Origin: a virus
Taxonomy: Duplodnaviria > Heunggongvirae > Uroviricota > Caudoviricetes
Strand: one strand, 5' to 3'
IMG/VR virus record: IMGVR_UViG_2603880148_000005
Span: 1-13,700 of that record
DNA: 13,700 nucleotides
Part shown: piece after piece, positions 9,817-10,624 of the stretch
Numbering within the stretch: position 1 is the stretch's first letter
How the letters are laid out: every line of letters begins with the position of its first letter
Made by a program: the position numbers and the translations under genes
The notes under the pieces: model-generated
The model's database searches: none
What the model was told of the DNA's origin: nothing
Seen by the model: only the letters and a program-made list of their open reading frames with translations

Positions 9817-10624
9817 GGCTTACCCCCTTGCTGACTGGTTTTACCTGTGCCCTGACGTGCTGCACGTGGCGGGCAAATTTCTGCTCCCACTGAACCTGCG
9901 TGAAAACCTTCCCCTCCGCCATCCAGTAATCCCGGAATGCGGCAAGCTCTGCAGGTGTAAATTCCGGCTCAGGCAGAGCCATACCCCACACTGCTGCCCG
10001 TTGTCGAAAATCCGACGACAGCTGCCAGACAGTAGTCATCGAAAATTTCCCGATCGGTTCGCTCAGGCCGTCCAGGTATTCAGGTTCGGCTGTCTGCAAC
10101 GGCGCACCATGCGACTCACCGGTTGGAGCACTCTCGCGCATGCGCGCGTTATGTGTGGGGTTTAATTCTGTATCTGTATCTTTATCTGTCGTGACTTGTC
10201 GTGACATGTGCGTGACATTTCGTGACGCGCCGTGACAATCGCCATTTTGTTCCCGCTTTCTTTCCCTCTCACGCTGCGCCCTCTTGCGCTCTGCCGGAGA
10301 TTTTGCGGTTTGCGAAATATTGCCGTTGTCCTCTTTAAGCACCTGGCGTTTTTCCCATCCAGTGATTAAATCACCATCAAGTACCCGCCCCTGCATCGTC
10401 TGCAAAATTGAATCAATTACCTCTTCTGTCACGTCGAGCGCACTTGCCAAATCTTCTGTCGTGACATCAATGTGACCTCGCGTGACATTTCGTGACGCGC
10501 TCACCAGGAGGTGGATATACACTGCCATCACTGTTGCAATTGGCTGCCCTGACACCCTGGCAATTGTTCGCCACTTAGGGTCATTTGGCATGTCATGCCA
10601 TAATCTGAGCCAGGCGTTAGCCAT
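9608..10624 (-). CDS. Replication initiator, O-like (replisome organiser), containing the origin iterons
   Basis: ORF track start 10630 is GTG; the ATG at 10624 is preceded by AGAGGTGA. The N-terminal domain is followed by a low-complexity linker that is encoded by the iterons, then a C-terminal domain. Position between the CII-like and P-like genes matches lambda O. Confidence 0.6.
   Translation of the reverse strand: MANAWLRLWHDMPNDPKWRTIARVSGQPIATVMAVYIHLLVSASRNVTRGHIDVTTEDLASALDVTEEVIDSILQTMQGRVLDGDLITGWEKRQVLKEDNGNISQTAKSPAERKRAQRERERKREQNGDCHGASRNVTHMSRQVTTDKDTDTELNPTHNARMRESAPTGESHGAPLQTAEPEYLDGLSEPIGKFSMTTVWQLSSDFRQRAAVWGMALPEPEFTPAELAAFRDYWMAEGKVFTQVQWEQKFARHVQHVRAQVKPVSKGVSHAASGGTASRAVQEIRAAREQWERDNGFISNGNGLEAVGAYGGGVFEPLDTEERGRTFEALDCPDWRDD
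10189..10237. repeat. Origin iterons, cluster 1: five direct CGTGAC repeats at about 10-11 bp spacing
   Basis: GTGAC at 10191, 10201, 10212, 10222 and 10232, all in the same orientation, with an AT-richer stretch (tttaattctgtatctgtatctttatctg) immediately upstream. Confidence 0.6.
10459..10500. repeat. Origin iterons, cluster 2: four direct CGTGAC repeats; shares an exact 21-bp duplication with cluster 1
   Basis: GTGAC at 10461, 10472, 10482 and 10492. The 21-mer GCGTGACATTTCGTGACGCGC occurs exactly at 10210-10230 and 10480-10500. Confidence 0.55.

Follow-up and report, generated by a model that had tools for sequence, protein, structure and literature searches.

The replication initiator gene of an E. 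coli prophage (Caudoviricetes; IMG/VR record IMGVR_UViG_2603880148_000005) contains two separate arrays of one short direct repeat, or iteron, within its coding region: array A, in loop codons of the N-terminal domain, and array B, in the codons of the interdomain linker. The gene lies on the minus strand of the stretch analyzed here, positions 1 to 13,700 of the record (13,700 nucleotides (nt), hereafter the window; Table 1). Comparison with relatives indicates that arrays A and B are very probably both selected binding sites for a single protein. More tentatively, we propose that A is an auxiliary array, putatively bound by the initiator, that cooperates with an origin core at B by looping or wrapping and thereby promotes complex assembly. 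Lambda and SPP1 are the textbook cases of origins located within initiator genes, described as one iteron block and an AT-rich region; the genes described here form a large, unstudied initiator family with a second array that overlaps the codons of the domain presumed to bind it.

On the plus strand the iteron reads CGTGAC, which on the gene strand is GTCACG. The window contains 13 copies of CGTGAC where 5.7 would be expected, a count attained in none of 200 shuffles, and eight of the 13 are plus-strand copies within 10190–10496. These form two clusters within the initiator gene, as the first-pass annotation had described, with the helical-turn spacing that it reported—always 10 or 11 base pairs (bp) in both arrays. 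Its tally of five and four CGTGAC copies is exact for the five units of array B, whereas the four units of array A comprise three exact copies and a one-mismatch TGTGAC, read directly from the sequence at 10471–10476. Array A is upstream of B in the gene, with some 260–270 bp between them; it spans approximately codons 43–55, corresponding to the end of helix 29–45 and the loop 46–55 of the winged-helix domain, and array B spans approximately codons 130–145 of the interdomain linker. The exact 21-bp duplication was also recovered: GCGTGACATTTCGTGACGCGC occurs exactly twice, once inside each array, at an offset of 270 bp (90 codons, in frame), with zero repeats of this kind expected by chance even when three mismatches are allowed. 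The initiator contains the peptide ASRNVT twice (residues 43–48 and 135–140). Because the window iterons are spread over all three codon phases, the DNA repeat is primary and the peptide repeat a by-product, in agreement with the earlier derivation of the repeated SRNVT from the DNA. A lone inverted iteron (GTCACG on the plus strand) occupies LDVT codons at 10428–10433, at a distance of 27 bp from array A; close relatives retain GTGAC there, and the site could reflect chance or be a fifth site.

The first-pass annotation offered a duplication as one reading of the bipartite layout; the layout proved to be family-wide and is not a one-off duplication in this phage. Two scans of viral contigs were performed: the first, whose alignment was headed by the protein of the window, yielded near-identical E. 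coli loci alone and served for copy-number counts, and the second, headed by a distant subgroup, returned 80 diverse loci, of which 48 were left at <90% nucleotide identity. A protein search with the N-domain recovered relatives down to approximately 50% identity. Hosts of the family include E. coli, as prophages, and Pseudomonas, Aeromonas, and Ralstonia, as phages. Array A is present in the loop codons of 43 of the 48 non-redundant homologues (approximately 40–100% identical), and in approximately 40 of these 43 the commonest loop 6-mer recurs at least twice, at approximately 10-bp spacing, in the linker. Across the 48 homologues, the same 6-mer is almost absent from the 114 nt upstream and from the 111 nt between the arrays. 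Of the spacings within the arrays of relatives, 151 were of 10 bp and 19 of 11 bp. At the cyanophage homologue Mwe-JY25, no clear iteron word was found at loop or linker.

The words switch in both arrays together. Called independently, the A and B words agree as GAACGC (approximately 30 loci), GTCACG (5), GTAACGC (4), and GTGACGC (2), and six words were found overall, the remaining two being GTAAC, in a relative (L091) with GTAAC/GTTAC in both places, and GCAACGC, which occurs in both arrays (5+4 copies) of Ralstonia phage Firinga at 38% identity. Pseudomonas phage phi1 has GTCACG in both arrays (4+4 copies), and a soil virus at 55% identity has CGAACGC at 10-bp spacing in loop and linker in place of GTCACG, followed by a GATAAAGATACAGAT-type run. 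Loop and linker peptides change together in the alignment (SRNVTRGH/SRNVT versus NATERGRT/NATERKRT). Among 102 loci of the subfamily, copy numbers (A,B) are (4,5) in 94, with the rest being (6,5), (6,4), (4,4), (3,5), and (5,3). E. coli relatives at 88–90% identity contain a 21-bp in-frame insertion in array A that amounts to exactly two extra iterons (six in A) and seven extra loop residues, with the 10-bp lattice kept.

Several further observations were made on individual relatives. Two loci have mixed-word A arrays: L161 combines GAACGC with GTGACGC (gene nt 114–171) and uses one of these two words in its B array, and L139 combines GTAACGC with GAACGC (nt 114–216) and uses mainly GTAACGC in B; these arrays may be intermediates of a specificity switch. 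In phage phi1 (L176, KT887557), positions 1201–2100 hold a continuous initiator open reading frame (ORF) of approximately 300 codons for which the record annotates no coding sequence (CDS), and records of related Pseudomonas phages annotate two hypothetical proteins at this position. Several metagenomic relatives (P0075 and P0115) have the N-domain fused to an HNH nuclease in place of the replication C-domain. Outside this family, no second array was found in the Rac YdaU-type (DUF1376) N-module, where a single upstream copy of the linker word TGTTCAA may be due to chance. Rac-SA53 ydaU (L006) and a second locus (L008) have two to three direct copies and one inverted copy of TGTTCAA before the same AT-rich run, and an extra copy approximately 210–280 bp upstream, in N-domain codons.

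By sequence comparison, array A is demonstrably under selection at the DNA level. In 17 GAACGC-class loci aligned codon for codon, third positions of codons with an invariant amino acid had a mean entropy of 0.34 bits inside array A versus 1.36 bits outside it (Mann–Whitney p=2.7e-4). The codons fixed inside the array include those for the six-fold degenerate Ser and Arg (TCG and CGC), Ala (GCA), and Thr (ACG), and the sole free site is an inter-iteron spacer, the third base of Gly50 (1.38 bits). Within the GTCACG class, the word is constant and the reading phase and peptide vary (KSRGVTQCH, KSRGVTTCH, SRAVTRGH, and SRNVTRGH). Retention of the word while phase and peptide differ all but rules out a repeat selected as protein and renders neutral duplication very improbable. 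Opposite-strand ORFs (10284–10475 and 10482–10748) were rejected as an explanation for the frozen synonymous sites, since the bases under constraint coincide exactly with the words, spaced 10 bp apart, that array B also contains. A promoter and terminator scan of 10000–11500 gave sites no commoner than in shuffles and none specific to array A, leaving an internal promoter or terminator unsupported as an explanation of the array.

The two arrays also resemble each other more closely within a genome than between genomes. The longest exact match between A and B, compared at 40 loci, averaged 16.0 nt within a genome versus 12.5 nt between different genomes of the same word class, and the same-genome string was the longer in 27 of the 40 (Wilcoxon p=9e-5, a value that is only indicative since the lineages are not independent); the longest such strings reach 35–36 nt (L126, L138, and L149). 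As spacer bases are common to A and B too, the arrays appear to undergo concerted evolution, for which gene conversion, or selection favoring identical multi-iteron units, could be responsible. The exact 21-mer of the window is best read as one instance of this ongoing homogenization.

Array B is flanked by the features expected for an origin core. Directly downstream of it in gene direction is an AT-rich run with purine/pyrimidine asymmetry, presumed to be a DNA-unwinding element, which reads ACAGATAAAGATACAGATACAGAATTAAAC on the gene strand and encodes TDKDTDTELN. The run is the sole AT-rich stretch of the gene, whose GC minimum (0.325) lies at 10160–10199; the GC profile of the gene has no AT-rich stretch adjoining array A. 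In nearly all relatives, the run (C)CAGATAAAGATA(C/A)AGAT follows the last B iteron. Just past the run in the window is a perfect 12-bp palindrome, CGCGCATGCGCG, in a position that recalls ori-lambda, where the palindrome is found to the right of the AT-rich region. By analogy, array B in the linker codons, together with the AT-rich run and the palindrome, looks like a lambda-style origin core. The palindrome is part of a Rac-like C-terminal module, the coding stretch ELNPTH...R.RES being present in Rac ydaU as well.

A mosaic junction falls within the AT-rich run. To its right, 10167–10700, which includes the N-domain and both arrays, is 97–99% identical to phages Evi, Tritos, and others, the C-terminal parts of which are unrelated to that of the window; to its left, 9600–10187 shows 88% identity to Rac-type ydaU/ydaV. 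The N-domain and both arrays are thus matched as one block up to the junction and travel as one module. Nearly all family members have the run GATAAAGATACAGAT, as do unrelated N-modules (Rac YdaU), and it may act as a homology patch for swapping initiator N- and C-modules.

Turning to the initiator itself, the protein comprises a winged-helix-like N-domain (approximately residues 1–95), a helix (110–126), a low-confidence linker, and a DnaT-like domain (194–260). The last of these matches Pfam DnaT PF17948 (E=8e-15, 54.8 bits versus a cut-off of 25), and the NCBIfam DnaT equivalog gives a partial match under its cut-off. The N-terminal 133 residues match PHROG 3729/1408, annotated as "replication initiation protein", close relatives carry the NCBI name "phage replisome organizer", and the N-domain gives a sub-threshold match to Phage_rep_org_N PF09681 (16.4 bits versus a cut-off of 23.3, E=0.009, profile positions 1–119 of 121). 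Pfam scans matched no lambda-O family to the N-domain. The initial description of the gene as O-like therefore holds by position and by its lambda-P-like partner only. An AlphaFold model drawing on 23 homologues has a mean predicted local distance difference test (pLDDT) score of 74, with values of approximately 90 or more over most of residues 11–90 and below 50 from residue 131 on, in the linker, which is predicted to be disordered. The modeled N-domain consists of helices 29–45, 56–63, and 67–77 and a beta hairpin (78–88), a layout like that of winged-helix proteins. Foldseek comparison of this domain with the PDB gave weak matches throughout (E>0.1, none significant), the best of which were nearly all winged-helix regulators (MarR/MepR, CRP, Rrf2, and ArsR). 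Array A is located at a helix–loop junction with a dip in model confidence, where the alignment contains insertions and deletions, and on this model the loop that it encodes is permissive.

Taken together, these features lead us to propose that the initiator gene carries its own two-part replication origin. Array B, the AT-rich GATAAAGATACAGAT run, and the palindrome would form the core, organized like ori-lambda or SPP1 oriL. The winged-helix N-domain would bind the words on one helix face, the bound initiator would open the AT-rich run, and the DnaT-like C-domain and the P-like protein would bring in the host helicase; N-domain binding, opening, and helicase recruitment are all modeled on lambda O/ori and SPP1 G38P/oriL. 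Array A, 260–270 bp upstream in the permissive-loop codons, would be bound by the same initiator, which would join the initiator at B through a loop or wrap of the DNA between them, and the larger complex could raise core occupancy and promote opening. Initiator binding, communication between A and B, and a positive effect of A are what we infer. The comparative data favor the two-site initiator-binding geometry that the first-pass annotation offered as one reading of the arrays. Its bipartite origin survives as two arrays of one word; the arrays are not equivalent, with an AT-rich run beside B only. Since only B has an AT-rich neighbor and A is lost in some lineages, "core plus auxiliary" fits better than "two origins". 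The start-to-start distance of the arrays ranges from 166 to 293 bp across the family, and the helical phase of the A lattice relative to that of B is non-random (R 0.39–0.43, mean offset −0.03 turn at 10.5 bp per turn; p=0.002 against random codon-preserving shifts and p=0.01 on unique geometries), which is suggestive of A and B lying on the same helix face.

Several points weigh against cooperation between A and B as the role of array A. The phasing signal is moderate and depends on the assumed helical repeat, and its statistics ignore shared ancestry. Five of the 48 homologues (L130, L146, L147, L159, and L162) have a good array B and decayed remnants at A, and the cyanophage homologue Cy-LDV1 has a linker word and no array A. 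Loss of A in some lineages means that it is not essential for origin function. The word classes are few and each probably arose once, so the co-switching of the arrays rests on approximately five independent events. The winged-helix-like assignment of the N-domain has to be read with the middling mean confidence of the model and the non-significant fold matches. Only 25 records of the phage collection match the N-module, none of them a classical model phage. Finally, a negative or regulatory role of A would fit the data equally well.

Known origins provide partial parallels. Direct examination of lambda O found its four iterons grouped together and the remainder of the gene free of them, confirming the single block assumed in the original comparison. 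As in ori-lambda, the putative origin of the window lies where the initiator gene encodes the linker, with iterons followed by an AT-rich region and then a palindrome; the N-domain and its iterons make up a single specificity module, recombined with different C-modules, and a P-like gene is next to it. However, lambda iterons are inverted repeats of approximately 18–19 bp, approximately 20–24 bp apart in a single block, whereas those of the window are direct words of 6–7 bp every 10–11 bp in two arrays separated by 260–270 bp, and the initiator differs in having an N-domain without a lambda-O family match and a DnaT-like C-domain. In P4, ori and crr are both bound by the initiator, the second cluster is required in cis, and the two are joined by looping. 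The likeness is in the two separate clusters of one short direct iteron; the P4 clusters are kilobases apart and non-coding, and its initiator, alpha, is an unrelated primase-helicase, while in the window's family some lineages are without array A. Among iteron plasmids, P1 (incC/incA) and RK2 (oriV, 5+3+1 iterons) have a core array by an AT-rich region and an extra array that is dispensable for initiation. These share with the window a second cluster of the same iterons apart from that beside the AT-rich region, but their extra arrays are non-coding and negative, acting in copy-number control and handcuffing with RepA-type initiators that have two winged-helix domains, whereas array A is inside a coding loop.

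The SPP1 initiator G38P has its origin oriL, comprising repeats and an AT-rich unwinding element, inside its own gene, 38, and binds two discrete regions (PMC5737612). Like G38P, the initiator of the window lacks an AAA+ domain and has a putative origin in its own gene, and its N-domain gives a weak, sub-threshold but full-length match to the same N-terminal family, PF09681. By contrast with SPP1 oriR, an origin-like site at a locus of its own beyond gene 38, the second array of the window is 260 bp off in the initiator gene itself and without an AT-rich partner. Full-text literature searches found no account of the origin of this initiator family or of its two-array layout, and a paper on the replication regions of non-lambdoid Shiga toxin (Stx) phages contains no discussion of repeats or origins (PMC8044961).

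Among other explanations of array A, negative control is the most serious, if somewhat unlikely. The array could act by titration, by handcuffing—pairing with B, or with A or B of a sister copy—or as a roadblock in its own gene, in which autorepression of the initiator and P-like genes would limit transcriptional activation of the origin. The shared word, shared orientation, and DNA-level selection are expected here as they are under cooperation, the dispensability of A in some lineages is what a control element would show, and A is approximately 130 nt into the coding region, upstream of all else in the operon. P1 incA and the extra three-iteron cluster of RK2 oriV are handcuffing precedents in iteron plasmids. 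However, a lytic-phase phage origin has no obvious need for a copy-number limit, no iteron is promoter-proximal or intergenic, where autorepression would be simplest, and helical register with B is expected for intramolecular cooperation, though intramolecular handcuffing would fit it as well.

An improbable alternative is that array A is a cis-capture site: because transcription and translation are coupled, the N-domain would fold while the polymerase is still in the gene, and the nascent initiator would be caught at A and then handed to the core 260 bp away. Cis-preferential initiators are known in other systems, nearly all relatives have A at a constant position, in the 5' part of the codons for its presumed binding domain, and the DNA-binding module and both arrays travel together. 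Its constant position is also explained by a single origin and inheritance in a permissive loop, however, and array B, being inside the gene as well, could do the same job.

We consider it very improbable that A is a functionless partial copy of B in a tolerant loop, kept similar by gene conversion. The longer exact A/B matches within genomes, including the 21-mer of the window, and the decay of A in five lineages would be consistent with such a by-product. Against this, 43 of 48 lineages have A at matching codons, with retention down to 38% protein identity, its iteron cores are frozen at synonymous sites while a spacer site is free, insertions are whole iteron pairs on the 10-bp lattice, and direct repeats 270 bp apart in an essential gene should be counterselected unless useful. 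Scarcely credible is selection of the peptide (A)SRNVT itself in loop and linker with the DNA similarity secondary: ASRNVT does occur twice in frame and relatives have comparable loop/linker peptide pairs, but the iterons occupy all three codon phases, peptides differ within one word class, six- and four-fold degenerate codons are invariant inside the cores only, and the linker is predicted to be disordered.

The gene offers a phage-origin case of putative long-range cooperation or control that is directly testable, because array A can be recoded synonymously. It is also a clean natural instance of dual coding, with a protein loop and a putative protein-binding DNA array on the same bases. The paired words provide a practical rule by which prophages of this family can be searched for origins and sorted by replication specificity, with relevance to prophage replication in Shiga-toxin-producing strains. 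A further idea, which we regard as very doubtful, is that the loop peptide encoded by array A itself reads the variable 5' bases of the iteron. It is prompted by the word classes differing only in G-N(1-2)-ACGC, with the rest of the domain nearly invariant between classes; no obvious protein positions outside the loop track word class. If true, a word change in A would alter binding site and reader in one step, a self-referential coupling.

Table 1. Positions of the initiator gene, its repeat arrays and associated elements, and neighboring genes in the window.
Feature	Position	Strand	Remarks
Replication initiator gene	9608–10624	−	338 amino acids; ORF and translation; RefSeq CDS of equal length in matching genome
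Array A	10460–10496	gene on −	three exact CGTGAC (+ strand), starts 10460, 10481, 10491
Array B	10190–10236	gene on −	five exact CGTGAC (+ strand), starts 10190, 10200, 10211, 10221, 10231
21-mer GCGTGACATTTCGTGACGCGC, copy 1	10480–10500		inside array A; exact match
21-mer GCGTGACATTTCGTGACGCGC, copy 2	10210–10230		inside array B; exact match
AT-rich, purine/pyrimidine-asymmetric run	10160–10189		adjoins array B; presumed DNA-unwinding element
Mosaic junction	~10167		inside AT-rich run; breakpoint at 568 of query 9600–10700
Perfect 12-bp palindrome CGCGCATGCGCG	10135–10146		just past AT-rich run
Lambda-P-like helicase-loader gene	9154–9615	−	8-bp overlap with initiator stop; also in RefSeq annotation of matching genome
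YdaT/CII-like gene	10696–11121	−	
Cro/YdaS-like gene	11105–11380	−	
CI-like repressor	11488–11988	+	

The surroundings of the initiator gene are those of a Rac-like early region, which includes the genes listed in Table 1 as well as DUF1627 and DUF977 genes. The P-like gene product, scanned as the frame 9154–9816, matches Pfam Phage_lambda_P PF06992 (E=1.3e-15) and PHROG 109, "P-like helicase loader". A prophage of E. coli 2013C-4991 matches the segment 9600–10700 at 99.9% identity, and some part of this segment is present in 2556 of 5426 complete E. coli genomes. The DUF1627 gene (8350–9138) adjoins the P-like gene and is intact in the window, whereas in the best-matching RefSeq genome (L001 3438–5521) it is broken by an IS3-family element; the window is therefore a different, uninterrupted copy.

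Other genes of the window include a type II restriction–modification pair (4904–6920), in which an NgoMIV-family endonuclease gene (PF09015, E=1e-126) overlaps that of a C5 cytosine methyltransferase, and a separate N6/N4 methylase at 578–1627. A homolog of QueH (epoxyqueuosine reductase) is encoded among the prophage early genes (7099–7785). Directly downstream of the CI-like repressor, at 12006–12487, is a pair comprising a PaaA2/RelB-like antitoxin and a RelE/ParE-like toxin.

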